40,924 nucleotides of DNA from a virus. Lineage: Duplodnaviria; Caudoviricetes. Below are positions 198 to 40,924 of the stretch, piece after piece; position 1 is the stretch's first letter, and the number at the start of each line of letters is the position of its first letter. The stretch covers positions 1-40,924 of the IMG/VR virus record IMGVR_UViG_3300032092_000077. One strand, given 5' to 3'. Made by a program: the position numbers and the translations under genes. Under the pieces are notes generated by a model. It saw only the letters and a program-made list of their open reading frames with translations. It was not told the origin of the DNA and searched no databases.

Positions 198-503
198 ATG
201 ACAACACCTGAAACGTGGATGAACGAAGCCCGGCAAATCGCCGCCCAATGCTGGTGCGACGAGGAAACCAAAAACACCGCGATGGACCCGGTGCTGGCGG
301 AAGCGGTGGCCAAAAGAATCGCGGCGTGGATGGATACCGGGGCACAAGCACAACGGAACTGCGACTACTATCGCGGCCTCGTCGTGCGCTGCGGAAACGC
401 ACTCGGAGAAGCGGCCAAGACCTGTGACGACGGCAGCAAGAGTGAAGATGTGCTCTGCGCCAAAGTGCCAGAACTCGTAGAGGCGCTTGTTGCGAACAGG
501 TAA
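198..503 (+). CDS. Cassette E hypothetical protein (101 aa)
   Basis: AAGGAG RBS; ATGA overlap with the upstream cassette ORF; stop codon (AAC AGG TAA) lies beyond the crossover, in attI. Confidence 0.85.
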   Translation: MTTPETWMNEARQIAAQCWCDEETKNTAMDPVLAEAVAKRIAAWMDTGAQAQRNCDYYRGLVVRCGNALGEAAKTCDDGSKSEDVLCAKVPELVEALVANR

Positions 504-540
504 TTCAATGAACCACGTTGGGTTAATTCCACGTCTCAAA
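489..540 (-). mobile_element. Putative attI site (crossover at 496/497), overlapping the intI start
   Basis: GTTGCGAAC (489-497) is the reverse complement of GTTCGCAAC (173-181), closing cassette E. No attC hairpin follows; instead AT-rich short repeats GGT(T)AATTC and CCACGT. Right boundary is approximate. Confidence 0.7.
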
Positions 541-1464
541 CAGGCACTGGCAGAGCAAAGCTGCGGGCGCAACACCGTAGCGACTTACTGCTTTTGGGCG
601 GGCAAGCTGTACCGGTTTACCGGCAAACCGGCGTCGCAGTGGACCGGCAAGGATGTACAGGCGTGGTTGTGGTCATTGCATCAAGCCGACTACTCGGCCT
701 CCTCCCGCAAACAAGCGCTCTGCGCCGCGGCGTTCATTTTCAAACACGTTGTGAAGGTGGATATGGGGCGCCTTGAACTGCCGCCGTTGCCAGTGATCCG
801 CCAGACGCTGCGCACCGTGCCGACCCGCGAAGAAATCGGCAGGATCCTGAGCAGTTTGCGCGGGCAGGTCAAGCTGATGGCGGGCCTGCTGTATGGCGCG
901 GGCTTGCGCGTTCACGAATGTTGCACCTTGCGGGTTCAGGATCTCGACTTCGACCACCTTACGGTGCGCGTCGTGGCCGGCAAGGGCGACAAGTCGCGGC
1001 TGCCCCCGCTGCCCTCCTTGTTGGTGCCCGCTTTGCAACGACACTTGGCGGCGCGGCGCGCCCAGCACGACCTTGATCTGGCCAACGGCCACGGCCTGGT
1101 TCAGTTGCCCGGGCGGCTGGCGATCAAGTACCCCGCCGCCTCGCGCGAGTTTCGCTGGCAGTATCTGTTCCCCTCCACGCTGGTCCGCGGCCAGTACCGC
1201 TGGCACGCCACGGCAGAATCGGTTGGCAAACAGATGCGCGCCGCTTGTGGCGCGGCGGGGATCACCCGGCGCGTCACGCCGCACACGCTCCGTCACGCCT
1301 TTGCCACGCACGGCCTGGCGCTGGGAAACGATATCAAGACCGTCCAGGAACAACTTGGCCATGAAAGCATCGAGACCACGGCGATTTATCTGCACAAGGT
1401 CAGCGCCTGTGGCCTGAGTCCGCTTGACGCCAGCCCCCTGCGTCGCGAGGTCCTGCCGGTATGA
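508..1464 (+). CDS. intI: Integron integrase (IntI-type tyrosine recombinase)
   Basis: SASSRKQALCA, LLYGAGLR, GKGDKSR, the IntI-specific insertion (DLANGHGLVQLPGRLAIKYP...WQYLFPS), HTLRHAFATH, LGHESIETTAIY. ATG 508 preferred over TTG 487. Confidence 0.92.
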   Translation: MNHVGLIPRLKQALAEQSCGRNTVATYCFWAGKLYRFTGKPASQWTGKDVQAWLWSLHQADYSASSRKQALCAAAFIFKHVVKVDMGRLELPPLPVIRQTLRTVPTREEIGRILSSLRGQVKLMAGLLYGAGLRVHECCTLRVQDLDFDHLTVRVVAGKGDKSRLPPLPSLLVPALQRHLAARRAQHDLDLANGHGLVQLPGRLAIKYPAASREFRWQYLFPSTLVRGQYRWHATAESVGKQMRAACGAAGITRRVTPHTLRHAFATHGLALGNDIKTVQEQLGHESIETTAIYLHKVSACGLSPLDASPLRREVLPV

Positions 1465-5330: not shown

Positions 5331-5710
5331 GCCCCGTCACAAGGAGGAAAGCCGTGGGGACCCCGCAACCGCACTGGACCGCGGCCCGGCTCCGCCAATA
5401 TCGGCGGCAGCTGGCCGCGCTCAACGACCGGGGACCGTACCCGGTGATCAACCTGGCGCGGGCGGCCGCCCGTGAAGTGCCGCTCAGTGAAGCGGCCCAC
5501 GGGGCGGCGGCGGCGGCGCTGCCCCATCCGCCCGCCAACGCGCTCGATGCGCTCAGCGCGGCGGAGTTTGTGGTCTGGTGCGCCCGCACGGCCGCCGATC
5601 GCGGCCTGCGGGCTTTGAGCAACAGCGAGCTGGCCCGCGTGCTCAAGGTCAGCGAAGCGCGGGTGCGCCAGCTCCACGCCAGCGCGGCCGGCAAACTGCC
5701 CGCGCCGTGA
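5327..5710 (+). CDS. Sigma-70 region 4-like HTH protein
   Basis: C-terminal SNSELARVLKVSEARVRQLHASAAGKL fits the sigma70 r4 pattern; ATGA overlap. Confidence 0.7.
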   Translation: MSPVTRRKAVGTPQPHWTAARLRQYRRQLAALNDRGPYPVINLARAAAREVPLSEAAHGAAAAALPHPPANALDALSAAEFVVWCARTAADRGLRALSNSELARVLKVSEARVRQLHASAAGKLPAP

Positions 5711-5717
5711 GTCGTGA

Positions 5718-11700: not shown

Positions 11701-12767
11701 GGGCGGGCGGCGGGCGCGGCGGGGCGGGCCGCGGCCGGCACGGGCGGGGGCGTGGCGGCGCGCTGGGTGCGGGCATAGCTGACGGGCAAGCCCAGCGCGG
11801 CAAACACGGTCGAGGCCGCTGCCGCGGGGCCCATCATTTGCTGGACGCGGTCCCACAAGGGCGGCGTGGGCACGTCGGCGGCCCGGTCCGCGCCCCACTG
11901 GCCCGCCTCGGTCACCAGCTCCTCGATGAACTCGGTCACGCCGATCCCCGCGCTGCGGGCGCTGGCCTGCAACGCGCGGCCCAGCCACGTTTTGACGGGA
12001 CGGGTCAGGGCGGCCATGGGTCGGCCCAAACCCGCCAGCTTTAATTGCAGCACATCGCTGACGGCTTCCACGCCGCCCTCGATCAGGCCTTGGGACAAGG
12101 CGTATTGCTGGCGGGCGTCCCCCGTCAAGGTGGCGGGGGCCGTCTCGCGGCTGCGGTCGTAGGTGCTGGCACCAAACAGGGCGCCCGCGACGGCGGCCGG
12201 GTTGCCCGTGGCCGCGCCCAGGCCCATGGCCGCCAGCGACGGCGTGGCCGTGCGGATGCCTTGTTGCAAGAAAGAAACCACGCCCGTGGCGGGGGCCTGG
12301 GGCAACGCGCGGGCCTCGGCGGCGCGCGCCTTGGCTTGCCAGTTGTCCTCCCACCACGATTGCCCGGGCAAACGGACCTGGGCCGCGGCCGGCCAGGCGG
12401 GCGGGCGCAGCGCGTCGTAATACGACGCCCCGGGCACGGTCCACGTCAAACCCTGGCGGGCCATGGACGGCGCACCGGCCAGGCCGCGCGCCACCAGCGC
12501 CATGGTGTCCAGGCCCGCGCCCTGCAACGTGCTGGGCCAATCGGCCGCCACGGGCGCCGCGGGGGCGGGTCCCGACGTCTGGACGGGCGCCGCGCTGTGG
12601 GCGGCGGCGGTCAGGGCGGGCAGGGGGGCCGCGGCCGCGGGCCACGCGGGGCGTTGCCGGGCGGCGGCGAAAATCTCATCGAGGTCGGCGGTGGTGGGGG
12701 GCGCCGCGCCGTCCCAGTCGAGTTGGAAGCGTTGGCCTGTGTGTTGGTCGGTGACGGCGTAACGCAT
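5718..12767 (-). CDS. Large polyvalent / internal virion (ejection) protein, 2349 aa, with zincin-like HExxH and ADP-ribosyltransferase-like domains
   Basis: Last gene of the late operon; VTHEATH motif; VWHGG...GKGFYFT...VYLR ART-like motifs; IPLSERFN...DIRFSR linker typical of phage polyvalent proteins. Confidence 0.75.
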   Translation of the reverse strand: MRYAVTDQHTGQRFQLDWDGAAPPTTADLDEIFAAARQRPAWPAAAAPLPALTAAAHSAAPVQTSGPAPAAPVAADWPSTLQGAGLDTMALVARGLAGAPSMARQGLTWTVPGASYYDALRPPAWPAAAQVRLPGQSWWEDNWQAKARAAEARALPQAPATGVVSFLQQGIRTATPSLAAMGLGAATGNPAAVAGALFGASTYDRSRETAPATLTGDARQQYALSQGLIEGGVEAVSDVLQLKLAGLGRPMAALTRPVKTWLGRALQASARSAGIGVTEFIEELVTEAGQWGADRAADVPTPPLWDRVQQMMGPAAAASTVFAALGLPVSYARTQRAATPPPVPAAARPAAPAARPAAASAVDPLPAAFAQLAALDAADPSAVADLLQARAENDWTDAEFLAAINAAHSRAAASSTGANAPAVFATTEDARVTGTGADRGGTVPPVADVVVATLTPTSDAAGTAAQDLGAAPVADPAAAARLAELRARLAGPVPLLTWQQDLYERDAEGTWHKLRRDPASGQTRRQFAVANETTIQALNDEHARRTTASIVADRDGAAPRELDAAALAEARPAVAPVAVDPAELATLLVSNGDPNAPVAAPPRPAAVATPVAGATTLTQFVRGRGGIALAKPDGGPVQMAADFAQLVAGQDSLAKRRGLIDRANRPANAPDSHVEAAVEAGFLPAGSTPADLYNALDEELRGQRFYYPTAYHGTADALEADAERRAEERDWQAEVEREETAAKSEEAVPFSRAQQADSGLDSHPLAGEIVGDETARPTQRYAPGTAQHDEALAGQLADRLQMRLGRPGGERVYRPARVSTEHPVARTVDAVAQALGLRVVWLERTGTGPRINGLQLPGTNVIGLSVELADPVLSTVTHEATHRLKQANPRVWNELVRVILQEADPARVQAWLARFNDQFGPDLPAASAAEARDEFIPELVGELAADAGFWQRLAARAPGPVRDLLQTLLDVLERSLQALGSRWTLRRRASDTIANLERVRTAATEALATLGTQAGDAAQAGVFHAGNATLTAPGVMLSRRRNLADDFMAEKINWGGVALTRAQAVQDMQQRGFSEEQIRGLGGPYQRAAVSAAEAAALMQDPFAGERFRLVNRESGSGDQTPQPPPQPSQLDLPLSRTREHFSGDNTERRDLRLSRATVTAAEDRQYLAAVERGDTATAQQMVDAAARKAGFTIGPVWHGGAGGFTVFDWGKMGAQGTTEGKGFYFTNDEALAKGYAERHGERLLRVYLRGGKQLDPRRLTITRRQIKQILRVLHSEAETAEEGSSPLWNYGDISYQGLPSVIEEAANNLANYSQDDASFVAGLINGGSDPELTYQAVYRVTGKTGILETDAWGRPGHEVHVATSAAHVKLADAITRDDAGRVIPLSERFNPNRPDIRFSRTREHKLAGRILDQPDNQVDPHSRARIEGERRYTVKGDDAMAREASAWINSVGGVEQAYREVTNTANQLAPDVRTEAAIQLGRLLQERYNKLTRDGDRRGAAQVGRNHAELLSWLTDYFETTGRAVSNARKLFAWDQLQYLTPEGWEVFAQRQVAKARGQRLPSADQALIAGLLRNLEQANARAAAPVAERASQARQAKDPLAQYLAAGSPALRAAAAAAIVKRGAQLRQLVYEHYTTADATAAALAAKLAAQAGLGELQAAQLAQDVAAAMQAETAAVKQRELARVIGQAQQGKVKRAVRSAGERLLRASALGALDTEAAYTALQDKLGLPAYDETLAAVVRDRAAKIQQETNPGKRAALANLLAGDIAAHVREPIYNAIATRLAQVHQLDEQGARELGRYLVDAWRLNLFSVTSFSLDIVANAAELAAQRIEGAGYDLVHALRTGRLSLPATSAFVAALRHRASHARRPLDARLEEAFGRTVSGETDILGAPSAGAFPTGDRGTFSTRRTWAGKSLDALVGTPLYAKGAADLAAKRLAAMAALYQEARTSADRHGLRGAAAQDYIEQYVADPPAHAIETAIAAGNAAGFNRALSPVEERIARNTFFRLLVTPFGRWPFQLARWAGQMVGINPRLWRAVRDGRATPEQIAAYLTRTATGIGGLLLVHALFAPSDAPDEDKDRGHVDYQSGDWVGADGVRVSLRVEPLSTALFLVSLLRGDRPAVIGLSRYASLPFAQALLAGRGEAGGLLGSLFTSVKLAAQQGSTHAVLAEASNTLNRLVPGQALLGAMESVINPRPQRGLGARLPGISYLLPDEPSPTTGQPEVRYWQLGTHTSAPVPAVSGVPLPFTSLTQDPVHQLLSANELLTYRGPRAPVAGVAPADLTWRQRREWNRALGQARQEILGQVNIATLRQQGYTRAQIKEYVRRLDATAAAQARARLGAELTAP
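8553..9364. repeat. 20-bp direct repeat pair GTGCTCGCGGGTGCGGGAGA (8553-8572 and 9345-9364) flanking the ART-like domain
   Basis: Exact match, 792 bp (264 codons) apart; both encode SRTREH on the minus strand. Confidence 0.9.
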
Positions 12768-30201: not shown

Positions 30202-32070
30202 CTATGCCGCCAGGCCGATGATATCCGTGGGCCGCCGCAACGCGGGGTGGCGGTTGTTGTGGTTCACGCGGGCCATCCGCTCGGCTTTCATGGCCTCGTA
30301 CATGCCGGCCGCGGTCAACGGCAGCCCCGTCAACGGCCGGGCGGCCGCGGGTGCCACGGCCCGCCGCGCTGTCTGGTCGGGCCATTTCACCACGTCGGCA
30401 AACTCGCTGAGCATGTCGCACAAGTCGTCATGCGGCTTGGGCTCGGGCAACCGCACCAGCTCGTCGCGCAACTCGGGCATCGCGTCCTTGCGCAATCGCA
30501 ACTTGCCGTTCTTGGCCAGCGGGATCAGCCGCCGCATGCGCGCCACCTTGGCGATGCCGGCAATGCGCACGGGGTGCCAGGGCAGAAACTCGTGGTCGGC
30601 CTTGGCCCGTTGGTTAATGAAAAACGCCAGCACGCGGTCGAGCACCGCCTGCTGCAGCCCGATGCCCAGGATCGGCAGGCCCAGCGCCTTGTACCGGCCC
30701 CAGTAACCCCAAACGGTCTCCATGAACTCGTGCGGATCCACGCGGCCGCGGGTGTATTCCACCACGTCCAGGAACCCGTCCGGGGTCGCCGCTACCACGC
30801 CCACCGCCGAGAAATCGCTGCGCTGGGTCACGGCCAGGGCCGAGTCGCACAAGATGTAGAGGTTGCACCGCCGCAAGTCCTCGACGGTGTCCTCGTGGTC
30901 GCCAATGTCCTCGGGCGCCACGCCTTCGTCGTCGGCAATCGGCTGCTGGCGCATGACGGCGTAGTAGCTGCCCTCCAGCGTTCGCTTGGCCGAGGCCAGG
31001 CTCGCCGCGTTGTCCAGCTCGGGCACGCTCGGGCTGCCGTCCGGCAGCTCGCAATCGGTGATGCAGCACAGGAAATCGCCACCATTTTCGAGCGCCAACT
31101 CGTCGGCAATAACCTGGTGCACGTCGCCAAAATTCCAGCGCGTGCCGATCACCTGGGTGGGGCCGCGTTCCTTGTCGGGCAGCATCGCAAACGAATCGCG
31201 AAACGCCTGTTCGGCCACGCGGATGCGGTCGCGATTCTTTGAGGACTCCTTGCCGATCAAGTCGTCAAAGAAATTCTCATCCGGGTGGTTGCCTTTGAGC
31301 TCCATGCCCGGCGAAACCGCCCGCAAGGTCGGCTCCAAACGGTTCACCTTGCGGTTGGGCACCGTGAACTCGGTTTTATTGCCAAACTCGTGCGCGCCCA
31401 GGGGCGGGCAAAACGCGGGAAACAGCTGGCGGAATCGTGCATTGCCGAGAAAATGGCCTTTGATTTTCTCCAGCCAATCGCTCGACAACCGCTCAATCTC
31501 GGACCAAAGGAAAATGGCCGTGTCAGGGTTGCGGATGATCCGCTGGATGATCTTGGCCTCGGTCTTGAGCGTGCTTTTGAGCCAGCCGCGGGGCTCCAGC
31601 CACATCTGCCGCGGATAACGCGGGTCGCTCGCCAGGTCGGCCGCGGGCTTGTGGTACCGCCAGAGCAATTTGTTCTCGTTGGCGGACTTGTCGCAGAGCA
31701 CGTACTTGGCGAGAAAATACAGGTCCTCGCGGCACACCTGGGCGTAAAACTCGGTTTCCTCGATGCCCTTGGCCAGCCGCGTCTGCTCCAGCGCCTCCAG
31801 GTACTCAATCTCGGTGAACTCAAACGCCACCGAGTCGGCCCACACCAGCCACGGCGCCGCCGTCAACAAAGGATCACCCCGCAGCGCCTCCACGGCGCGC
31901 GGGTTCGGGAAAATTTTTTGGGAATTTTTTGGCGCGGTGCCAGTCAACACGCGATGGGTGTGTTTTCGGCCCGCCCCCCCCTGCGCCCCCATACCCCCCC
32001 CGACCGACGCCGCGGGCACCTGTCCGGGCGTCTGGACTGGTAGCAGGTCGAGTTGCGGGCTGGTGCTCAT
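30202..32070 (-). CDS. terL: Terminase large subunit
   Basis: PRGWLKST (Walker A-like), FFDDL (Walker B), IGTRW, CDSA...SDFSA and HDDLCD nuclease motifs. Confidence 0.9.
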   Translation of the reverse strand: MSTSPQLDLLPVQTPGQVPAASVGGGMGAQGGAGRKHTHRVLTGTAPKNSQKIFPNPRAVEALRGDPLLTAAPWLVWADSVAFEFTEIEYLEALEQTRLAKGIEETEFYAQVCREDLYFLAKYVLCDKSANENKLLWRYHKPAADLASDPRYPRQMWLEPRGWLKSTLKTEAKIIQRIIRNPDTAIFLWSEIERLSSDWLEKIKGHFLGNARFRQLFPAFCPPLGAHEFGNKTEFTVPNRKVNRLEPTLRAVSPGMELKGNHPDENFFDDLIGKESSKNRDRIRVAEQAFRDSFAMLPDKERGPTQVIGTRWNFGDVHQVIADELALENGGDFLCCITDCELPDGSPSVPELDNAASLASAKRTLEGSYYAVMRQQPIADDEGVAPEDIGDHEDTVEDLRRCNLYILCDSALAVTQRSDFSAVGVVAATPDGFLDVVEYTRGRVDPHEFMETVWGYWGRYKALGLPILGIGLQQAVLDRVLAFFINQRAKADHEFLPWHPVRIAGIAKVARMRRLIPLAKNGKLRLRKDAMPELRDELVRLPEPKPHDDLCDMLSEFADVVKWPDQTARRAVAPAAARPLTGLPLTAAGMYEAMKAERMARVNHNNRHPALRRPTDIIGLAA

Positions 32071-32078
32071 AGAGTTGG

Positions 32079-32663
32079 TTACTCTACCTCCGCAGCTTGC
32101 AATGCAGGCACTTGTGCTGGGCTGTCACCTTGCGAAGGGGTGACACGGGCCCGCAAATGCGCAATCGCGTCGCCTACCACGCCGCTGATCTGGACCGTGT
32201 CACCGGCCACGGCCACGGCGATCTGGGCGCCGCTGGGCTTCAATTCGCCCGTGTACTCGCCCGCCAGCTTCAACAAGGCGATCTCCTCGCCCTCCAGGCT
32301 GCGCCGACTGGCCGCCTCGGCCACGCGCTCGGTGGCGTAGCCCATGGCACGGCGGAAATCCTCACGGCACAAGTCTTTGCGCTCCAGCAAATAAGCCGCG
32401 TGAAGCTTGGTGAAGTCGTCCGTGTTCACCACGCGCGACAAGGTCGAGCGCGAGATCTTCAACCGCTCCGCCAGTTCGGTCATGTTTGCGCGTGGAAAGT
32501 CCACAAGTGCCTCAGAAACAGCTACTTGCACCCGTGAAGCCTTCGGAAACCGTCGCAAAACCCTGACCCAAACGAGGCTATGAGGCTCGACAGCGGGGCC
32601 TTGGCGACGGCTTGCCGCCTGATCTCCGCCTCGGCGTTGCATGGGACGCTTCTCTGGCATCAC
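32079..32663 (-). CDS. Terminase small subunit-like HTH protein
   Basis: MTELAERLKISRSTLSR HTH; directly upstream of terL; start uncertain. Confidence 0.65.
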   Translation of the reverse strand: MMPEKRPMQRRGGDQAASRRQGPAVEPHSLVWVRVLRRFPKASRVQVAVSEALVDFPRANMTELAERLKISRSTLSRVVNTDDFTKLHAAYLLERKDLCREDFRRAMGYATERVAEAASRRSLEGEEIALLKLAGEYTGELKPSGAQIAVAVAGDTVQISGVVGDAIAHLRARVTPSQGDSPAQVPALQAAEVE

Positions 32664-32816
32664 CGATAGCGCGGAGTTCGTAGGGCAATGCGCGTTTCAA
32701 CCGCCAATGACGCGGGTTTGCCCTTTGTCGCCCTCGAAGTTGGCCGTTGCACGCTACGTACCGTACCGGTAACGTATGTACTGTACGTAGCACCCCGAAA
32801 ACGGGCGGTGTCGGGC

Positions 32817-32977
32817 GTCAGACTGGTCGGAATCCGACCGCTCTGGTGGGTCAGACTGGTCGGAATCCGACCGCTCTGGTGGGTCAGACTGGTCGGAATC
32901 CGACCGCTCTGGTGGGTCAGACTGGTCGGAATCCGACCGCTCTGGTGGGTCAGACTGGTCGGAATCCGACCGCTCTG
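32817..32977. repeat. Tandem array, about 4.9 x 33 bp, each unit containing the palindrome GGTCGGA-A-TCCGACC
   Basis: Unit GTCAGACTGGTCGGAATCCGACCGCTCTGGTGG starts at 32817, 32850, 32883, 32916, 32949; no spacers. Confidence 0.95.
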
Positions 32978-33456
32978 AATCGTCTGACGCCGATGCCCAG
33001 CGCGATCAGCCATGCACTCGGCAGCGTTTCCGCCAACATGCGCGAATAGTTCAGCTCAGTCACGAGCGTCAAAGTGTTGGTTGAATCCAAGCCACGCGGC
33101 AACACGGGTTCGGGTTCGATCCAAAGAAAACTTCTGCCCGCTGCTCGGCGGATGGGTCGGCTTCCATGAAACTCGGCGACTGTGGTCCACTGTGGAAACA
33201 AGGACAGCGTCGCTGCAAATATCAGCCCACCCGCGATGGTCGCGCGGCCTGTCCAGTCGCATGTCTTGCCGATCCAACGGCGGCGCACTGACGGGGCTAG
33301 TTGGTTTGCATACTGCGTGATGAGGCTACTGGCAACGGTCTGGTCCACTGTACTGTAGGGGAATTTGGCTGGATAATTCAGTGCGTGCAATGCCTTGAAC
33401 GTCTCGGCTTGCGTCAATCCGCAGCGTACAGACAAGTCGGCCACGCTGATACTCAC
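32950..33456 (-). CDS. Membrane protein co-transcribed with the putative repressor
   Basis: GTGA overlap with 33453-33713; two hydrophobic segments; lower GC; stop falls in the last repeat unit. Confidence 0.6.
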   Translation of the reverse strand: MSISVADLSVRCGLTQAETFKALHALNYPAKFPYSTVDQTVASSLITQYANQLAPSVRRRWIGKTCDWTGRATIAGGLIFAATLSLFPQWTTVAEFHGSRPIRRAAGRSFLWIEPEPVLPRGLDSTNTLTLVTELNYSRMLAETLPSAWLIALGIGVRRFRAVGFRPV

Positions 33457-33713
33457 GGCTTGACCTTTGCGTTGTAAGCGGCCTTCGCCTCGGCCACCAA
33501 TCGTAGCTTTGTCTCGGTTCTGACGGCATCCAAGTCCTCGCGAAGCGTGTCCAGTTCGTCGTGACGAAAAAGCTCGGTCACCAACAGGTACACATCAAGG
33601 CAATGATCAGCTTGGCCGACGAAGGTGCGATTCTTTTTTTTGGCCAGTGTCTCGACCGTGTTTTTGAAGCGGGCCGACACGCGTTGCGACACTGATTTTA
33701 TTGCCTCTGACAC
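33453..33713 (-). CDS. Arc/ribbon-helix-helix-like regulator (candidate repressor)
   Basis: SVSQRVSARFKNTVETLAKKKNRTF strand-helix-helix pattern; divergent from the early operon. Confidence 0.55.
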   Translation of the reverse strand: MSEAIKSVSQRVSARFKNTVETLAKKKNRTFVGQADHCLDVYLLVTELFRHDELDTLREDLDAVRTETKLRLVAEAKAAYNAKVKP

Positions 33714-33759
33714 TCATCCCCCTGCTGACTTGGACAGTACACCTACTTTTCGTGCGCGC

Positions 33760-33796
33760 AATGTGCCACTTGACAACAAGTGGCACATTTTGTTAG
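33760..33796 (+). promoter_or_regulatory. Early promoter with perfect operator palindrome
   Basis: AATGTGCCACTTG-ACAA-CAAGTGGCACATT (33760-33789) containing TTGACA (33770-33775); TTAGAA/TAGAAG lies 17-18 nt downstream. Confidence 0.75.
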
Positions 33797-33807
33797 AAGC
33801 CCGCGCC

Positions 33808-33981
33808 ATGAAACCAGTCGGAGTTTCCATTGACGCCGCCACTCGACGGCGCAGTCGCGAATTAATGCGACAACGACGCATCACCAGCTTTTCGCAGTTG
33901 GTGCGTTGGTTGGTCGAGGAGGAGTACGTCCGATCCAAGGAGGTCAGTCATGTCACGGAATCTACGCCAGCGCATGGATGA
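33808..33981 (+). CDS. Small ribbon-helix-helix-like regulator (Cro-equivalent position)
   Basis: VGVSIDAATRRR...SFSQLVRWLVEEE; first gene after the promoter. Confidence 0.6.
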   Translation: MKPVGVSIDAATRRRSRELMRQRRITSFSQLVRWLVEEEYVRSKEVSHVTESTPAHG

Positions 33982-34153
33982 GTTACACCTGGCCGCCCAG
34001 CGCGCCGCCGCCGCGGGCCACGCCGCGGAGGTCGCCGAGTTACTGGAGCGCGCTGCTGAGTTGGAGCAAGAGGCCGACCGTCGCCCCGGTGATTTTGCCG
34101 ATGATGGTTGCGGCGATCCCACCTTGTCGTTGGTGCCCGGCTGGGCGTGCTAG
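33950..34153 (+). CDS. Hypothetical protein
   Basis: AAGGAGGT RBS. Confidence 0.65.
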   Translation: MSRNLRQRMDELHLAAQRAAAAGHAAEVAELLERAAELEQEADRRPGDFADDGCGDPTLSLVPGWAC

Positions 34154-34169
34154 CGGGCGAGGGTGGGGG

Positions 34170-35267
34170 ATGGACAAGGAGGACCTCTTGCGCTGTCTGC
34201 TGTCTGATAGTTTCGATGGCGCGGTTCGTGTCTTTGCGGCGGTCGAATATCTGGACGGTGGCGGGAAGGGGGTCGGTGAGGTTGCTGCTGTTGCCCGACT
34301 TAGCGTCGAGCGCACGCGCAAACATATCGCCGCCCTTCGCCGCACTGGCTTGGTCCAGGTCACCCGCCGCCAATACGGCCTTACTGTCCAGACGTCTGTG
34401 CCCGTTGGCACGCCGCCCTTGCCGGCAACGGCGCCGATGGCAGCGCCCGCTGTCAACCGCGATTCGGCGCCGTTGCCGGTGGATCCATCGCTGGCCGCGC
34501 CGTCGCCGTTGTCGGTCAAGGATGCCGTGGCCGCCGAGATCGCCCGCCAGCGCGCCCTGCGTCCGTCTGTGTCTCCTGCCTCCGCCCCGTCTCCCTCCTC
34601 CACGGGCGCGGAGCTCCCGGGCGGGGACGGTGTCCTAGCGCCGTCCCCGCTTCCCGGTGAGCTGCCGTTTGTCGGTCAACTGGAGCCCGAGCTGGTCCGC
34701 CTGGTCACCGTCATGCAACACGAGTTGGACCGCGTCGAACTCACCCGCCACAAGGTCGCGCCCGACAAGCTGCGCGCCCTGGCGATTGCCTTCCGCGCCC
34801 AGGCCGATCTCCAGGCCGTCACCAGCGCGTTCGTGGACTGGCTCACCAGCAACAAGAAATCCGCCGTTGCCAAGCGCAAGGTCATCGCCGCCAAGCCCGA
34901 CAAGTTTGACTGGGCCGAGGCCTTCGACAACCACGTCCGCTACTCGGTGAAGATCGCCCACGGCGAGCCGCGCCGCCGCAAAGGTGCCAGCGCGCCCGCG
35001 GCCGCCCCCACGTCGCCGGGGTCCGCGCCCGCGGCCGCCCACGCTGCCGACACGATTCCCGCCGCCGAGCAAGATGCCGCCTGGAACGCGCTCACCCAGG
35101 ACCAACGCGACGCCCTGGTCCAGATCAAACGCGATGAAATGCTGGGCGTGTTCGGTCCCGCCTCGCCCAAACTGGCCACGCTCGATTACCGGGCCATGGC
35201 CCGCCACGAAGCGGCCCTCTCCGCGCGCCGTCGCGCCAGCGCCGCGCCGTCCACCACTGCCCCATGA
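34170..35267 (+). CDS. Putative replication initiator (N-terminal wHTH)
   Basis: GEVAAVARLSVERTRKHIAALRRTGLV wHTH, Pro-rich linker; ATGA-coupled to DnaB. Confidence 0.6.
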   Translation: MDKEDLLRCLLSDSFDGAVRVFAAVEYLDGGGKGVGEVAAVARLSVERTRKHIAALRRTGLVQVTRRQYGLTVQTSVPVGTPPLPATAPMAAPAVNRDSAPLPVDPSLAAPSPLSVKDAVAAEIARQRALRPSVSPASAPSPSSTGAELPGGDGVLAPSPLPGELPFVGQLEPELVRLVTVMQHELDRVELTRHKVAPDKLRALAIAFRAQADLQAVTSAFVDWLTSNKKSAVAKRKVIAAKPDKFDWAEAFDNHVRYSVKIAHGEPRRRKGASAPAAAPTSPGSAPAAAHAADTIPAAEQDAAWNALTQDQRDALVQIKRDEMLGVFGPASPKLATLDYRAMARHEAALSARRRASAAPSTTAP

Positions 35268-36613
35268 AACCCACCTTCGACCGCCCGTTACCCCACGCCG
35301 AGGCCGCCGAGCAAGCCGTCCTCGGGGCTCTGCTGCTTAACCCTGCCGACGCGGGCGCACTGGTGTTTGATCGCCTCCAGGAAACGGATTTCTACCTCGC
35401 CAAACACCAGGTCGTCTTTCGCCACATGGTGGCGATCTACGATGCCTTCAAGACGATTGACCCCGTCACCCTCGCCCAGCGGATGGCCGACGCGGGCGCG
35501 CTGGCCGAAGTGGGCGGGCCCGCTTACCTGGCCGATCTGAGTAGCAGCATCCCGACGCTGGCCAACCTGGAGGATTACATCACCCTGGTGGCCGACAAGT
35601 CCCTGTTGCGCCGCGCCATTGCCCTGGGCTGGTCCATGGCCGAGGGCGCTTTCAATAATGACGGCGACGTCGCGGGCTACCTCGACACCATCAGCCAACA
35701 GGTGTTTGACCTGGTGACTCATTCCCGGGCCACGGGCGGCCTGGTCAAGGCCAGCGCGCACGTGCCCGCGGCCAAAGCCCAGATCGGCCACGAACTGGAT
35801 TGCACCGGCGTTACCGGCCTCACCACGGGCCTCGATGACCTCGATGCGCTCACGGGCGGCCTCAAGCCGCGCACCAGCTACGTAGTCGCCGCCCGCCCCT
35901 CGGTCGGCAAGACTGCCCTGGGCATGAACATTGCCGAGCATGTCTGCTGCGATCTCGGTCTGGCCGTGGGCGTGTTCTCCCTGGAAATGGGCAGCATCGA
36001 GCTGCTCAAACGGCTGCTGTGTGCCCGCGCCCGGTTCAACGTCCGCCACGTCCGCGGCCTGCAAGATCCCGGCCCCGCGCTCAACCGCCTCACCGATGCC
36101 GTCGCCGCCGTCTCGGGCGCCCCGCTGTTTATTGACGATACGCCCCGGCTGTCGGTCCACCAGATCCGCGCCCGGGCTCGCCGCCTGCACGCCCGCCAAC
36201 CGCTCGGCCTGCTTGTCGTGGATTATCTCCAGCTGGTGCGGGCGGCCGACAACCCGCGCGAGTTCAAGGACAATCGCCAGGCCCAGCTCACCGAGATCTC
36301 CGCGGGGCTCAACGCGCTCAAGGTCGAGCTCGGCATCCCCGTGGTGGTCATGGCCCAGCTCAACCGCAACTCGGAGTTTCGCGAGACGGGCCTGCCGCGC
36401 CTGGCGGACCTGCGCGAGTCGGGCGCCATCGAACAAGATGCCGACGTCGTGATCCTGCTCCACCGCGAGCGCATCGAGGATTCCGCGGTACTCGGCTCCG
36501 ATGCCACGTTGATCGTGGGCAAACACCGCAACGGCCCCACCGGTGAGGTCAAGTCGTATTTCGACGGGCCGCACACCCGCTTTTGCAACGCCGCACGGGA
36601 GAATCGCGCATGA
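35264..36613 (+). CDS. dnaB: Replicative DNA helicase DnaB-like
   Basis: AEQAVLGALL, AARPSVGKT, FSLEM, VDYLQL, AQLNR, DLRESGAIEQDAD, KHRNGPTG. Confidence 0.97.
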   Translation: MKPTFDRPLPHAEAAEQAVLGALLLNPADAGALVFDRLQETDFYLAKHQVVFRHMVAIYDAFKTIDPVTLAQRMADAGALAEVGGPAYLADLSSSIPTLANLEDYITLVADKSLLRRAIALGWSMAEGAFNNDGDVAGYLDTISQQVFDLVTHSRATGGLVKASAHVPAAKAQIGHELDCTGVTGLTTGLDDLDALTGGLKPRTSYVVAARPSVGKTALGMNIAEHVCCDLGLAVGVFSLEMGSIELLKRLLCARARFNVRHVRGLQDPGPALNRLTDAVAAVSGAPLFIDDTPRLSVHQIRARARRLHARQPLGLLVVDYLQLVRAADNPREFKDNRQAQLTEISAGLNALKVELGIPVVVMAQLNRNSEFRETGLPRLADLRESGAIEQDADVVILLHRERIEDSAVLGSDATLIVGKHRNGPTGEVKSYFDGPHTRFCNAARENRA

Positions 36614-37071
36614 TCCAAACCTACCAGGTCCACGGTCACACGTACCGGTACTATCGGGCCAACCAAACGCACTGGTGCCTCGACGTGTCGCGGCATGATA
36701 CCGCCGACAACAACGGCGCCAAGTGGGAAGTGGTCTGCTACGATCGCGAGCCGCGCGCCGTCCGCGCCGCCCTGGTGGACGCCGTCCTCTCGGACCTGCC
36801 GCTGCTGCCCGAGCTCCGCTACACCGCCGTGATCACCGGCAAGTCCAGCCCGCGGGATTGCCTGCCCCACGCGGCCACGCTGCGCGGCCACGGGTTTACC
36901 TTCGTGGATCATGCCGGCATTCGGCCCGCCGAGTGGATCAAGCCCGACTGCGATTTCGGCGCGCTCAACGATGCCCGCGCCCTGGCCGCCACCCTCGGCC
37001 TGCGTTATCTGCGCCGCGCCGTGGCGCCGCGGCCCACCGCCGCCGCCGCCGTGATGGAAGGGAGGCTCTGA
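36610..37071 (+). CDS. Hypothetical protein
   Basis: ATGA overlap with dnaB. Confidence 0.7.
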   Translation: MIQTYQVHGHTYRYYRANQTHWCLDVSRHDTADNNGAKWEVVCYDREPRAVRAALVDAVLSDLPLLPELRYTAVITGKSSPRDCLPHAATLRGHGFTFVDHAGIRPAEWIKPDCDFGALNDARALAATLGLRYLRRAVAPRPTAAAAVMEGRL

Positions 37072-37077
37072 CTCACC

Positions 37078-37263
37078 ATGTCCCGCCTGATCAACCGCTC
37101 GGCTGTCCGCGCCCTGGTGCTATTCGAGGCCACCCAGCGCCATCAATGGCGTAACGGCGCCCGCGTGGCGTCCTCTCTCCTGGACAGCATCGAGGCCGAT
37201 CTGCGCGCCACCATCCAGCGCCGCATCGCCACCTATACCGGCAAAGGAAAAACTCTCCGATGA
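37078..37263 (+). CDS. Hypothetical protein (61 aa)
   Basis: GGAGG RBS; ATGA overlap downstream. Confidence 0.7.
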   Translation: MSRLINRSAVRALVLFEATQRHQWRNGARVASSLLDSIEADLRATIQRRIATYTGKGKTLR

Positions 37264-37508
37264 ACACCATGAAATGCAAACGATTCAAGGGATGGGGTCC
37301 GAGCGAAGTCGTACACTTGCGCGAGTCGACCTATAGCGCGGCTTTGCGGTCATCGCACGAGCGCCCGCCCAGGTTTCTCGATTCTGACGATGAGCGCACT
37401 TTCGTTTTGGTCTTGAACGTTGGCCAATGGCGCGAGGACCTCGGGGTGTATGCGTTCAGTGAAGTGATGTTGGCTGAGTACGAAGAATGCGAGGTTCGCA
37501 CACTATGA
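37260..37508 (+). CDS. Hypothetical protein, lower GC
   Basis: ATGA overlaps at both ends. Confidence 0.65.
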   Translation: MNTMKCKRFKGWGPSEVVHLRESTYSAALRSSHERPPRFLDSDDERTFVLVLNVGQWREDLGVYAFSEVMLAEYEECEVRTL

Positions 37509-37741
37509 ACCCCGCCACCGCCACTCAATCCCCGCCGCCGTCCGTCCCGGCCGCCCCCGACCCGCTGGATGCCTCGCTCTGCCGGCAAGGCCTGCGCGAA
37601 CTGCTCCGCACCGAGGCCCGTTGCCTGGGCCACTGCAAAACGTACCGCGGCGAGATCCGCGACTCGCTGGTCCGCTATTTCACCGCCCGCCTCAAACTGA
37701 TCGCCCAAACCTATCGCCGCCAACCCCAACCAGGAGCCTAG
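37505..37741 (+). CDS. Hypothetical protein
   Basis: ATGA overlap; GAGG RBS. Confidence 0.6.
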   Translation: MNPATATQSPPPSVPAAPDPLDASLCRQGLRELLRTEARCLGHCKTYRGEIRDSLVRYFTARLKLIAQTYRRQPQPGA

Positions 37742-37748
37742 TCCCCGC

Positions 37749-38381
37749 ATGAAACCACTCACCTTGGCCGAGTTCGCCGCGCTGCCCGCGTCGGCGTCGG
37801 TCTTGTATTTCGACACCGAGACCACCGGCAAAGCCGACTGGCGCGCGCCCGCGTCCGCCCTGCACCAGCCCCGCGTGGTCCAGATCGGCGCCGAGCTGCA
37901 CCGGGCGGACACCTGCCTGGCCATGTTCCACACGCTGGTGCAACCCGCGGGCTGGACCATCCCCGCCGAGGCCACGGCCATTCACGGCATCACCGATGCC
38001 ATGTGCGCCGCCGATGGTTTGCCCGGGCTGGCCGTGCTCAACGTGTTTGTCGGCCTCCTGTTGGCGGCGGACGTGGTGGTCAGCTTCAATTTGGATTTCG
38101 ACGCGCTCATGCTGGAGATCGAGGGTCATCACCACCAGCGGCCCGACCTGTGGCGCGACGTGCGCGGGTTCTGCGCCATGCGCGCCGCCACGCCTTATTG
38201 CCGTCTGCCTGGTCATCGGCCCGGCCAATACAAATGGCCCCGCCTGGCCGAGGCCCACCAGATCCTTTGCGGCACCCCGCTGGTCGGCGCCCACGGCGCG
38301 CTGGCCGATACCCGCGGCTGCCGCAACGTCACCCAGGCGCTCTGCCAACGCCAGCGCCAGAACCTCAACCCCCAACCCTAG
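37749..38381 (+). CDS. DEDDh 3'-5' exonuclease (DnaQ-like)
   Basis: FDTETTG, IHGIT, FNLDFD, AHGALAD motifs. Confidence 0.92.
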   Translation: MKPLTLAEFAALPASASVLYFDTETTGKADWRAPASALHQPRVVQIGAELHRADTCLAMFHTLVQPAGWTIPAEATAIHGITDAMCAADGLPGLAVLNVFVGLLLAADVVVSFNLDFDALMLEIEGHHHQRPDLWRDVRGFCAMRAATPYCRLPGHRPGQYKWPRLAEAHQILCGTPLVGAHGALADTRGCRNVTQALCQRQRQNLNPQP

Positions 38382-38395
38382 AAAGGTCCCGCCCC

Positions 38396-39016
38396 ATGCC
38401 CACCATGTCCTGCCCCCGATGTTCCAAAACCATCAACAAAATCGGCAGCCACCGTCATCTCCGGTTCTGCAAGGGCCCCGGCACACCCCCGCCCGTGCCG
38501 GTCGCCGCGCCCTTGGCCGCTGCCGTCGCCGCGCTGCGCGCGCAAACCCCTGCGGATCACCGGCGCGGCATGGCCACGCTGGAGTTTGGCGCGTTCCGCC
38601 GCGAGTTCGCGTTTGCCGACCTGGCCGATCTCCGCCTCCAGCTCACCACCCTCCAGTTCGAGCTCGCCGATTCCGCGCAACTACTCGGGATCGCCGCGTC
38701 TGGTGGAGCGGCGCCCCGGCAAAACGCCGACGCCGCGCCCGCCCTTGCCGCCAGCGCGGCCCGCCCCCGCCGCACCTCGCGGATTATCCGCACCGGAAAA
38801 CCCGCCACTACATCCGCCCCATCCGTCCCATTGGCCCTATCCGTCCCCTTGGCCCCCTCCGCCTCGATCACCGAGCGCGCCCTGGCCCGCTGCGAAGCCG
38901 AGCTGGCCAACCCGCTCACCAACGACGGCCGCCGCGCCGTGCTCCGCACCGAGATCGCCACGCTCAAAACCAAGCTCGCCACCGCCGCCGCCCAGGCCGC
39001 CCGCGCCAAGGAGTAA
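38396..39016 (+). CDS. Hypothetical protein with N-terminal zinc finger
   Basis: CPRC...H...C; GAAAGG RBS. Confidence 0.65.
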   Translation: MPTMSCPRCSKTINKIGSHRHLRFCKGPGTPPPVPVAAPLAAAVAALRAQTPADHRRGMATLEFGAFRREFAFADLADLRLQLTTLQFELADSAQLLGIAASGGAAPRQNADAAPALAASAARPRRTSRIIRTGKPATTSAPSVPLALSVPLAPSASITERALARCEAELANPLTNDGRRAVLRTEIATLKTKLATAAAQAARAKE

Positions 39017-39023
39017 CCCCGCC

Positions 39024-39272
39024 ATGCCCACCACCACCGCCCCGCCCGTCCCGCCGCCGCCCACCGCGCCGCTGCTGGACGACGTCCCCTACACCCCCGC
39101 CGAGATCGCCGCCTACCATCGCGTTTCGCTCTGGACCATCCAGCGCCGCATGGCCGAAGGCCTGCTGCCGTTTTCCGCCGATGGCCGCACCAAACGCATC
39201 ACTGGCGCTCAATACAAACAGTTCCTTGCCAACACCGCCCACGGTGCCAACGAGGGAGTGCAGCGACCATGA
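39024..39272 (+). CDS. Excisionase-like HTH protein; C-terminus encoded by attC 1
   Basis: YTPAEIAAYHRVSLWTIQRRMAEGLLP...RI MerR/Xis-type pattern; AAGGAG RBS. Confidence 0.75.
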   Translation: MPTTTAPPVPPPPTAPLLDDVPYTPAEIAAYHRVSLWTIQRRMAEGLLPFSADGRTKRITGAQYKQFLANTAHGANEGVQRP

Positions 39273-39353
39273 GCCAGCCGCCCAATGCCGCAGCGAATCC
39301 AGAACCAGCCCGGCGCGGCTGGCTCATGGTTCGTCTGCACCGACTTGTTGGCC
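39245..39353 (-). mobile_element. attC site 1 (cassette A, 39251-39543)
   Basis: Minus strand: GGCCAAC-AAGTC-GGTGCAGACGAACCATGAGCCAGCCGC...GCGGCTGGCTCATGGTC-GCTGCAC-TCCCTC-GTTGGCA. Confidence 0.88.
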
Positions 39354-39607
39354 GTCTTCGTGGCGTGCTGACAAACCGATTCGACGCCCAATGGGAGGAG
39401 TTCGGACGCATGACGGATGACCAACTACTCGACGAGTTTGAGCGCCTACTCGATGCGCCAACCCACAAAGAGACTGACCGCTTTCGGCGGCTCTGCTACC
39501 GCATGGCTTTGTGCTGGTGGTCAGAGCGAAGACTGACGGCCAACGTGGGAGTGCAGCCACGGCGTCGGACGCCGTTGGCTGACACGACTGGTTCGACGGG
39601 AGAATAA
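39269..39607 (+). CDS. Cassette A hypothetical protein
   Basis: Starts inside attC 1 (ATGA overlap) and reads through attC 2. Confidence 0.75.
   Translation: MSQPPNAAANPEPARRGWLMVRLHRLVGRLRGVLTNRFDAQWEEFGRMTDDQLLDEFERLLDAPTHKETDRFRRLCYRMALCWWSERRLTANVGVQPRRRTPLADTTGSTGE
39538..39597 (-). mobile_element. attC site 2 (cassette B, 39544-39815)
   Basis: Minus strand: GTCGAAC-CAGTC-GTGTCAGC-CAACGGCGTCCGACGCCGTG-GCTGCAC-TCCCAC-GTTGGCC; 60 bp. Confidence 0.92.
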
Positions 39608-39612
39608 CGGAA

Positions 39613-39849
39613 ATGGCTGCAATCAGAACCGCCTTAATCAAACGACAGGTCGGCAGTGCCAAGCTGAAACTGGCGCTGGCGAGCATAGACCTGAACAAAG
39701 AACGGAAAACCAGACGGACGTGGCGATACATCGCCTCACGGCTCCGGGAAGCGCAACGGCTAGTCGGCGCGGCAAAATGGACTGCGGAAGCCAATGCTAT
39801 CCGCACTCCGTCGAACATGAAAGCTGACGCACGGGAGCAGAGCCGATGA
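39613..39849 (+). CDS. Cassette B hypothetical basic protein
   Basis: GGGAG RBS after attC 2; stop inside attC 3. Confidence 0.75.
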   Translation: MAAIRTALIKRQVGSAKLKLALASIDLNKERKTRRTWRYIASRLREAQRLVGAAKWTAEANAIRTPSNMKADAREQSR

Positions 39850-39915
39850 CAACGCCCATCACGATAACCGACGCCAACGGCTCTGCTCCCGTTGTCGTCC
39901 AGCGTCTGGTTCGGC
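39810..39915 (-). mobile_element. attC site 3 (cassette C, 39816-40123)
   Basis: Minus strand: GCCGAAC-CAGAC-GCTGGACG-ACAACGGGAGCAGAGCCG...CGGCTCTGCTCCCGTG-CGTCAGC-TTTCAT-GTTCGAC. Confidence 0.9.
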
Positions 39916-40145
39916 AATCCTGCGTGCCATGCCCGTACTGCGGACAAGACGTACACAACGACTGGAAACCAAACTCGGAATACGTGCTGCGATGCCCGTA
40001 CCCATGCACACAACTCTTTGCGGTGCGAACGCACGGAGCAAGCGTCCACACGGCTAAGATAGACTGGCAAGGCGGTACTCTCTACTGGCTGCCGAATGTG
40101 ACCATCGCAGCGGTATTGCCGAACGCGGAGGTCAGCCATGAGTGA
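39846..40145 (+). CDS. Cassette C zinc-ribbon protein (copy 1)
   Basis: CPYC...CPYPC; starts in attC 3 and stops in attC 4. Confidence 0.8.
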   Translation: MTTPITITDANGSAPVVVQRLVRQSCVPCPYCGQDVHNDWKPNSEYVLRCPYPCTQLFAVRTHGASVHTAKIDWQGGTLYWLPNVTIAAVLPNAEVSHE

Positions 40146-40192
40146 AGCGAGTCCGACGAGCGCAACGAATTGGCTGCACCGTCTGGTTCGGC
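40118..40192 (-). mobile_element. attC site 4 (cassette D, 40124-40614)
   Basis: Minus strand: GCCGAAC-CAGAC-GGTGCAGCCAA...TGGCTGAC-CTCCGC-GTTCGGC. Confidence 0.82.
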
Positions 40193-40329
40193 GATTCCGT
40201 TGCGCGATGGGAATGCACCACTGGAAATACACCAGCGAGCGCGGATTTCGATACCGGAACTGCACCGGCTACTGTCAACTATCGCAGTACCAAAACGACA
40301 ACCGCCAATGGAAGGAAGTGCCATTTTGA
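40138..40329 (+). CDS. Cassette D ORF1, Cys/His-rich
   Basis: GGAGGT RBS and ATG inside attC 4; C..G.H.W...C...C motif. Confidence 0.75.
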   Translation: MSEASPTSATNWLHRLVRRFRCAMGMHHWKYTSERGFRYRNCTGYCQLSQYQNDNRQWKEVPF

Positions 40330-40331
40330 CG

Positions 40332-40445
40332 ATGAGCGCCCGCAGCAAAACAGTCTCGCGATGGGTAGAATGCCTATCGGCATCGGGGTGTGTGTCAACA
40401 AAGAGTGACACCGGGAGGTTGCTCATCTCCAATCACGAAAGGTAA
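40332..40445 (+). CDS. Cassette D ORF2 (37 aa, uncertain)
   Basis: Fills the gap between ORF1 and ORF3 with 2-nt spacing at each side. Confidence 0.4.
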   Translation: MSARSKTVSRWVECLSASGCVSTKSDTGRLLISNHER

Positions 40446-40447
40446 TA

Positions 40448-40648
40448 ATGGACAAGGAACACATCTGCGCCAACTGCCAATGGTACAAACGCGACTACGG
40501 CGTGTTCACGGCTACCGGCTGGACAGGCATGGACAGGAACAAAGGCCAGTGCAACTACGAGCCGCGCCCGATACGCAAGGACGGCAAAGACTGGTGCGCT
40601 CGCTATACGCCGAACATGAAAGCTGACGCACGGGAGCAGAGCCGATGA
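40448..40648 (+). CDS. Cassette D ORF3, Cys-rich
   Basis: GAAAGG RBS; CANC...GQC...WC; stop inside attC 5. Confidence 0.75.
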   Translation: MDKEHICANCQWYKRDYGVFTATGWTGMDRNKGQCNYEPRPIRKDGKDWCARYTPNMKADAREQSR

Positions 40649-40714
40649 CAACGCCCATCACGATAACCGACGCCAACGGCTCTGCTCCCGTTGTCGTCCA
40701 GCGTCTGGTTCGGC
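40609..40714 (-). mobile_element. attC site 5 (second copy of cassette C, 40615-40922)
   Basis: Identical to attC 3 except in the R' box (GTTCGGC vs GTTCGAC). Confidence 0.9.
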
Positions 40715-40924
40715 AATCCTGCGTGCCATGCCCGTACTGCGGACAAGACGTACACAACGACTGGAAACCAAACTCGGAATACGTGCTGCGATGCCCGTAC
40801 CCATGCACACAACTCTTTGCGGTGCGAACGCACGGAGCAAGCGTCCACACGGCTAAGATAGACTGGCAAGGCGGTACTCTCTACTGGCTGCCGAATGTGA
40901 CCATCGCAGCGGTATTGCCGAACG
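40645..40924 (+). CDS. Cassette C zinc-ribbon protein (copy 2), continuing across the circular junction to a TGA at 199-201
   Basis: Identical to copy 1 up to ...LPN, then GGVELPRPTRLAPTTGSQLNKEKP through attC 6. Confidence 0.75.
   Translation, partial: MTTPITITDANGSAPVVVQRLVRQSCVPCPYCGQDVHNDWKPNSEYVLRCPYPCTQLFAVRTHGASVHTAKIDWQGGTLYWLPNVTIAAVLPN

Follow-up and report, generated by a model that had tools for sequence, protein, structure and literature searches.

A phage integron whose cassette genes follow the bottom strand of attC, with in-frame crossovers at its recombination sites

The choice of attC strand in integrons is usually explained as pointing captured genes away from intI, under the Pc promoter. 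Here we describe an integron that has the same attC polarity with its genes reversed, so that the recombination site must double as coding sequence. It lies in the IMG/VR virus record IMGVR_UViG_3300032092_000077 (Duplodnaviria; Caudoviricetes), positions 1 to 40,924; this whole stretch of 40,924 nt is called the window below. The window is the circular genome of a temperate phage, and its integron, which is real and looks active, is complete, with intI, attI and six attC sites placed between an excisionase-like (xis-like) gene and a phage integrase gene.

The closest described systems are the classical integrons, among them class 1 (IntI1/attI1) and Vibrio (IntIA). The window resembles these in its IntI-type tyrosine recombinase, in an attI beside the intI start, and in the R and L boxes, spacer asymmetry, extra bases and polarity relative to intI of its attC sites. 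Integrons are known to recombine by copy-and-paste as well as by cut-and-paste, and the window shares copy-and-paste duplication with them (PMC8024014). It differs in that its genes lie on the bottom strand, co-directional with intI, with the crossover inside their 3' ends; starts and stops fall inside the hairpin, no Pc was seen, and the integrase carries a 5-6 amino acid (aa) deletion. Cury et al. 2016 (PMC4889954) describe cassette genes opposite intI as usual, and they also describe the inverted-integrase integrons of Treponema, which differ from the window. In these 'reverse' integrons intI and the cassette genes are co-directional, as in the window; in Treponema, however, intI is flipped relative to attC, whereas in the window intI is canonical and the genes are flipped.

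A partial precedent for coding across a crossover is ORF-11 of attI1, an open reading frame (ORF) that extends over the crossover, ends on a stop brought in by the incoming cassette and provides translational coupling (PMC8876359). ORF-11 and short attC ORFs are thus like the window in crossover overlap, borrowed stop and relief by translation, but ORF-11 is a top-strand leader peptide at attI only, whereas each junction of the window involves the cargo genes themselves, which are on the bottom strand. Phage genomes with integrons and with clusters of attC sites lacking an integrase (CALINs) were reported by Qi et al. 2023 (PMC9892861); the complete integrons among them are captured bacterial ones. 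Those phages carry attC arrays and a few complete integrons, as the window does, with the Vibrio and Shewanella arrays and the TJE1 site in canonical orientation. The available portion of that paper's main text mentions no inverted genes, frame rules or phage integrase clade, and its supplements could bear on orientation. A literature search, mostly of journals open without subscription, likewise returned no inverted frame-locked cassettes and no phage IntI clade.

We read the locus, with a probability of about 0.75, as a phage integron with bottom-strand genes, in-frame asparagine crossovers and stops supplied by the next site, in which IntI likely swaps cassettes at AAC, the array is likely read through from the early operon, and ribosomes are predicted to be handed from one gene to the next.

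Layout of the array and polarity of its sites

Along the + strand the order is xis-like gene, six cassettes, a conserved site at 495 and intI (508-1464). The array runs from 39249 through the contig end to 503, across the circular junction, and its GC content is 0.587, against 0.67 elsewhere. The six cassettes measure 293, 272, 308, 491, 308 and 371 nt. Five of them are distinct, since one cassette is duplicated and accounts for two of the seven junctions; the donor at the first junction is the xis-like gene. The recombination sites are as follows.

attC1, core 39249..39349, + (bottom strand): bulge position atypical; includes the stop of xis and the cassette-1 start, ATGA at 39269
attC2, core 39542..39593, + (bottom strand): short, canonical
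attC3, core 39814..39911, + (bottom strand): three extra bases on the 3' arm; opens the duplicated 308-nt cassette, which part of the population has lost by excision
attC4, core 40122..40188, + (bottom strand): GGAGG-like ribosome site and ATG 40138 within the hairpin
attC3, second copy, core 40613..40710, + (bottom strand)
attC5, core 40921 (=124)..175, + (bottom strand): short, canonical; 81% like attC2
Putative attI, 495..520, +: AAC crossover at 495, frame-0 stop 501-503; 3' limit approximate

Judged by R and L boxes, unpaired spacer and extra-helical bases on one arm, four attC sites are canonical and two atypical. The textbook bottom-strand pattern (spacers of 6 nt after AAC and 5 nt before GTT, and a 3' arm with extra bases) is present on the + strand at 4/6 sites, and attC4 is atypical in having a 5-nt 5' spacer. 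We also used a detector that scores each hairpin as bottom or top from its spacer lengths and the side of its bulges, with criteria after PMC2727003. On the + strand of the window it returned 'bottom' at 6/6 attC sites, narrowly so for attC1. As controls, four annotated classical integrons (L277-L280) gave 'bottom' on the intI strand at 15/15 array sites, with their annotated genes mostly on the strand opposite intI; two further detector matches fell outside the array. The detector is incomplete, with 4 sites recovered in a Vibrio phage array. It found one convincing attC, in canonical orientation, in TJE1, and no usable CALIN in P12002L (2 sites, against 3-5 in shuffles). An Rfam scan gave two matches, both at chance level.

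The polarity of attC relative to intI is therefore canonical, and the genes are flipped onto the attC bottom strand. The intI gene lies on the attC bottom strand as in the four controls, which separates the locus from a Treponema-type inversion; the cassette genes lie on that same strand, which separates it from a classical Pc-driven array with top-strand genes opposite intI; and intI abuts the array, which separates it from a CALIN. That the cassette ORFs run along the + strand, opposite to the usual orientation and together with the early operon and intI, had been proposed in an earlier note made from the sequence, and it holds. On the + strand the mobile unit is C-hairpin-gene-AA, in an arrangement of intI, attI and attC polarity that is the classical one.

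Reading frame at the junctions

The ORFs that meet the recombination sites are listed below, beginning with the first donor.

xis-like helix-turn-helix gene, 39024..39272, +: last gene of the early/replication run; ends GAN at the first crossover, stop inside attC1
Cassette 1 ORF, 39269..39607, +: 112 aa; tail reads through the whole of attC2; no family
Cassette 2 ORF, 39613..39849, +: 78 aa; PSN and a tail from attC3
Cassette 3 ORF, 39846..40145, +: 99 aa
Cassette 4, first ORF, 40138..40329, +: 63 aa, own stop
Cassette 4, second ORF, 40332..40445, +: 37 aa, own stop; probably coding, given 2-nt gaps on both sides
Cassette 4, third ORF, 40448..40648, +: 66 aa; TPN and a tail; the only cassette-4 ORF without its own stop
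Cassette 3 ORF, second copy, 40645..40924 and on across the circular junction, +: stop at 199-201
Cassette 5 ORF, adjoining attI, 198..503, +: 101-aa helical protein; ends VAN-R-stop in attI

The earlier note had claimed that every junction is crossed with AAC in frame by an ORF that borrows its stop, and the window bears this out. AAC is in frame at all seven junctions with no earlier stop (GAN, TAN, PSN, LPN, TPN, LPN, VAN), as in the xis-like gene, which reaches AAC after 225 nt in frame 0. The stop falls in or just past the next site, with stop-to-start gaps of -4, +5, -4, -8, -4, -4 and, at intI, +4. At each junction the incoming ORF has no stop of its own, but cassette 4 has three ORFs, the first two with their own stops. 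The earlier note had passed over this, and also over the identity of the first donor as xis and the duplication behind two of the junctions. The claim that any cassette order would stay translated was checked at the level of geometry: a frame-0 stop lies -8 to +5 nt from the next start at every receiving site in the window. Since all seven receiving sites fit any frame-0 donor, permutation of the window cassettes keeps the stop/start geometry. All six cassette lengths equal 2 mod 3, in four cassettes because of the ATGA overlap and in the other two not obviously so; neighbour spacing in the related loci described next, at 10/18/24 of 52 across the three residues mod 3, follows no strict rule.

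How surprising the shared frame is depends on the null. We rejected a null of one third per junction as too generous given measured rates, since AAC is in frame in 203/324 cases (63%) in twelve core genes of the phage and in 161/444 (36%) in cassette gene bodies of relatives. For the six independent window junctions, 6/6 in frame gives p ~0.06 under the 63% null and ~0.002 under the 36% null. The frame rule is secured by the relatives and not by the window alone.

We surveyed 46 related loci: 34 with IntI homologues, 10 of 24 with an attI motif and 2 of 13 further ones. The 34 were drawn from 239 by setting aside distant integrases, four duplicates and most loci whose upstream DNA was short, a few of which stayed in; six duplicates and eight loci judged by eye to be chance matches were dropped from the attI-motif set. 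attC sites are present in 37/46 loci, and 91/94 sites share the window polarity, while shuffles give 2 sites. A donor ORF of 150 nt or more leads into 72/91 sites, against 4/17 in the controls. These 72 donors, non-redundant for the frame statistics, divide into 51 that read through in frame 0, 7 and 2 that do so in the other frames, and 12 that stop at a TAA on the crossover. The 51/60 read-through donors in frame 0 correspond to p 1e-14 under the 36% null and 1e-4 under the 63% null, values that overstate independence because loci share ancestry; the frame-0 majority is seen in 21/25 loci. Random frames at crossovers of homologous arrays, which the earlier note had named as grounds for giving up its proposal, are thus not what is found. 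A composition method that allowed the top strand agreed, assigning 87 sites as 55 frame 0, 11 TAA, 5 and 2 in other frames, 10 top and 4 none; frame 0 accounts for 55/62 of its read-through donors, and it placed 9/17 control sites on top.

A frame-0 stop lies inside 86/91 receiving sites (the script's printed denominator, the window's own sites not included), against 47 and 42 in the other two frames, and the controls give 11/10/11 of 17. At attI, an AAC-led motif is conserved 30-42 nt before intI and was located by script in 29/34 loci; the donor genes abutting it differ among relatives up to AAC, and a frame-0 stop by the intI start occurs in 27/29 cases, against 13 and 16 in the other frames, across several sequence variants. 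The site at 495 probably acts as attI on this evidence. On the exit side the earlier note does not carry over: its rule that ORFs starting inside an attC leave with GTT in frame is contradicted by the relatives, in which frames 0/1/2 account for 19/20/13 of 52 internal starts. The GTT side needs no frame lock, because only the AAC side gets rejoined.

Because each gene meets the crossover at its 3' end, donors share a convention, AAC in frame for most and TAA for a minority. Together with a frame-0 stop in the receiving sites, this convention means that shuffling alters only a short tail; in relatives the tails past the crossover have a median of 8 aa and range from 1 to 55 aa.

Several loci in the survey are of interest in their own right. 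Nine (L253, L254, L257, L260, L265, L266, L267, L270 and L276) carry the attI motif without an adjoining intI, most with attC upstream, and such arrays on viral contigs are possibly served in trans. In L020 (7123-7213) a frame-0 inverted junction stands beside an integrase that falls outside the phage clade and has the full-length integrase hairpin, so the inverted layout may not be tied to one integrase clade. Some inverted cassettes resemble DNA methyltransferases by eye (L001 ~5710-6270, L005 ~6580-7270, L019 ~7100-7670). In L015 at 7957 and L016 at 1811, attI variants are followed by the stretch AACTTTGTTT, which we take to be similar to the class 1 attI1 core.

Translation, rearrangement and coding strand

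Classical attC hairpins block ribosomes, and translating through them relieves the block (PMC8876359). Folded as RNA, the start regions of the window are predicted to be 6-17% unpaired in attC1, attC3 and attC4 and 67-73% unpaired where the start lies beyond attC2 and attC5, after which ribosome sites are free. For a start inside the hairpin, whose ribosome site would be base-paired, an incoming ribosome is predicted to open the hairpin and reinitiate, and translational coupling at the attC hairpins is a prediction of this kind. In the relatives 52/81 outgoing starts lie inside the site and 29/81 beyond the hairpin; among the internal ones, 42/52 fall within -20 to +15 nt of the frame-0 stop and 22/52 are ATGA. 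The coupling geometry is thus common but not universal.

These same numbers bear on a rival explanation, in which recombination and orientation are as we describe but the frame rule only guarantees a stop, leaving short tails that do no harm and sparing the phage non-stop and fused proteins, while each gene initiates independently and the overlaps reflect phage compaction. ATGA overlaps occur all along the operon, also outside the array at 35264, 36610, 37260 and 37505, so that tight gaps need not be an adaptation of attC. The starts beyond the hairpin, the free ribosome sites after attC2 and attC5, the 12 donors that end on TAA and the wide range of tail lengths fit this explanation as well. 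It accounts less readily for the majority of starts that sit inside the hairpin, clustered around the frame-0 stop, and for the predicted base pairing of the internal starts in the window, and we regard it as unlikely, though deserving of serious weight.

With respect to transcription, a promoter scan at shuffle level, which gave nothing for the starts of other genes either, showed no promoter near the array on either strand and no Pc; a weak terminator scan, likewise at shuffle level, gave no + strand terminator-like site in 32000-40924. Array transcription is probably Pc-free read-through from the early operon. The module forms the 3' end of the replication operon and is flanked by xis and int. 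The sole transcript crossing the array would for that reason read the bottom strand, and useful cassettes would therefore carry their genes backwards. The newest cassette would be farthest from the promoter, with intI the last gene of the same message.

Rearranged copies of the array show where recombination takes place. Identity between the copies of the duplicated unit extends over 39812-40125, which consists of a hairpin followed by a gene, and at both ends they diverge right after AAC. The two copies have the same hairpin before the gene and different hairpins after it; a canonical cassette on the + strand would have repeated as gene then hairpin. Read depth over the repeat is 112.5 vs 63.7 in public run X1 and 23.9 vs 13.7 in X5 (about 1.75-fold), and this near-double depth shows that the duplication is real. 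In 2/4 runs, contigs of X5 (depth 5.2) and X9 (depth 3) skip exactly 308 nt through a joint 39811>40120 with 5 shared letters, which is the precise removal of the first cassette-3 copy. Four small-share runs of four other studies were also inspected. In X12 a contig joins the end of the cassette-5 gene to attC3, in X14 the 66-aa gene is followed, from 40616 on, by a different attC-like arm, and X13 and X16 showed no rearranged junction. Stretches that run contigs left uncovered were not counted as evidence. The duplication ends and the three natural junction types, from three studies, all fall within 5 nt or fewer that include AAC. Natural rearrangements therefore break at AAC, and IntI is probably responsible, acting by folded bottom-strand recombination. 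Three other joints, 38194>39011 and 38605>38867 in X14 and 39001>39275 in X1, resemble other organisms' GC-rich DNA and were not used.

Natural variation bears on the coding strand. In the X14 variant of cassette 3, 7/7 listed substitutions are at third positions and 6/7 are silent on the + strand, whereas 7/7 alter a residue of a 313-aa minus-strand ORF (39324-40265). The + strand is thus the coding strand of the cassettes. The protein of cassette 5 belongs to a widespread unnamed family with 366 homologues. Among the 120 of these listed, several of the closest diverge right after 'AN', one close homologue carries the attC-coded 'NAEVS' of the window, and most of the distant ones end otherwise. 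Its fold is predicted with confidence (pLDDT 96), with no structural match in PDB or BFVD and with Atlas matches all under 0.9. No cassette protein matched a Pfam or PHROG family.

These observations largely refute the view that the cassettes are ordinary ones expressed from a Pc in intI, the 313-aa ORF being the real cargo and the + strand ORFs shadows kept open for ribosome passage. Such an ORF does exist, and classical geometry predicts top-strand genes (PMC4889954), but it spans four cassettes, is broken by the observed excision and has no Pfam match, while the conserved, confidently folded protein of cassette 5 is on the + strand; we consider this view very improbable. Still less probable is a misread polarity or an assembly artefact, with canonical genes cut at the 3' GTT or with graph errors producing the duplication and junctions: attC1 is ambiguous, attC4 has a short spacer, the contig ends inside a repeat and the integrase hairpin is shortened, yet the two copies share the preceding and differ in the following hairpin, the repeat is near double depth in two studies, junctions breaking at AAC come from three, and the detector calls the positive controls correctly.

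The make-up of cassette 4 is a separate matter. Compared with 40327-40615, the X14 relative lacks the 63-aa ORF and has an attC-like end shortly before the 37-aa and 66-aa ORFs, so cassette 4 may have arisen by fusion with loss of an attC.

Integrase, weight of the evidence and phage context

Three further features complete the map.

Integron integrase, 508..1464, +: mostly viral clade; catalytic residues intact
Second, ordinary phage integrase, 1476..2597, -: convergent with intI; context, outside the integron
Terminal repeat, 40798..40924, no strand: circular assembly overlap of 127 nt with 1-127

The integron integrase matches PF00589, and R134, K159/K162, H259, R262, H285 and Y294 are invariant in 46 homologues. 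TIGR02249 is the best of 11 families (E 3e-76), and the best solved-structure match is VchIntIA (2A3V, E 2e-52). The IntI-specific insertion is present, aligned to IntI1 and IntIA and absent in Xer-like rows, and identity to IntI1 is only ~38%. In a quick tree of 51 rows the enzyme falls in a 31-row clade (SH-aLRT 99) made up of 16 viral contigs, 11 metagenome contigs of unchecked phage status, 3 binned contigs and the window. All 31 carry the 5-6 aa deletion, and on this alignment the window integrase appears to sit in a distinct, mostly viral clade. Neither 50,697 GenBank phages nor PLSDB yielded a clade member, the best identity being ~38-42%. A single-sequence IntI search of viral contigs gave no match, but an alignment-based search did find homologues. 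The enzyme probably acts by recombination on folded single strands.

Several observations pull the other way from our preferred reading, of a phage integron with frame-locked bottom-strand genes. Among the sites, attC1 is nearly ambiguous, with a bottom score of 11.0 vs a top score of 10.5. For the enzyme, the TIGR02249 score of 256.8 bits lies below the curated cut-off of 265 bits, and the deletion affects the hairpin after the IntI insertion, where IntI1 has DPRSGVV. In the relatives, 9/60 read-through donors were scored in other frames, 19/91 sites have no donor ORF of 150 nt, and the composition method puts 10/87 on the top strand. Most of the starts beyond the hairpin are far from the frame-0 stop, and the ATGA overlaps elsewhere in the operon count here as well. 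Among the runs, X5 may be the source sample and X9 comes from the study of X5, the X12 and X14 junctions are seen in one contig each, and in X10 one depth-3 contig has 4/6 non-silent changes in the 63-aa ORF.

A wider reading, which we hold as tentative and somewhat against the odds, would see phages as owning an integron lineage apart, complete with a dedicated integrase clade and attI and with a mirror-image cassette pool shared across the community under one frame standard. Each hairpin would serve as recombination site, translational switch and tail donor. Exchange with bacterial integrons would be silent in both directions, bacterial cassettes in a phage integron and phage cassettes in bacterial integrons alike. 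Early-operon transcription would displace the recombining bottom strand and make IntI, triggering shuffling during induction.

For the preferred reading, the implication is a reading-frame convention shared across many phages. It would offer a mechanism for part of the mosaicism in small early phage genes and explain a class of odd protein tails, and annotation pipelines would place such genes in the wrong cassette. If the coupling is true, reshuffled orders are predicted to stay translated, likely from the phage's own early transcript, and the array would be a naturally occurring design for shuffling translationally coupled genes in any order. Its complete integron, its duplication and the public variants with excised or reordered cassettes make the window a good test case.

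In the surrounding genome the terminase, portal and major capsid genes are on the minus strand, and a tightly packed + strand gene run extends from ~33900 up to the xis-like gene, including DnaB at 35264 and an exonuclease at 37749. The xis-like gene matches the excisionase family phrog_66 (E 1.6e-06) and HTH_17 (E 0.001, below that family's cut-off). The virion block includes a 2349-aa ORF (5718-12767, -) with no NCBIfam match. Between the early and late blocks, a minus-strand ORF (32660-33013) contains, at 32797-32988, a 33-nt unit repeated in tandem five to six times, possibly an origin or a low-complexity protein repeat. As a weak lead to the host, the clade includes integrases from binned contigs, two assigned to Chthoniobacteraceae and one to Bifidobacteriaceae. 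Finally, four short TGTCAC-containing direct repeats at 2690-2870, between the phage integrase start and a ParB-like gene, are candidates for an attP arm or regulator sites.

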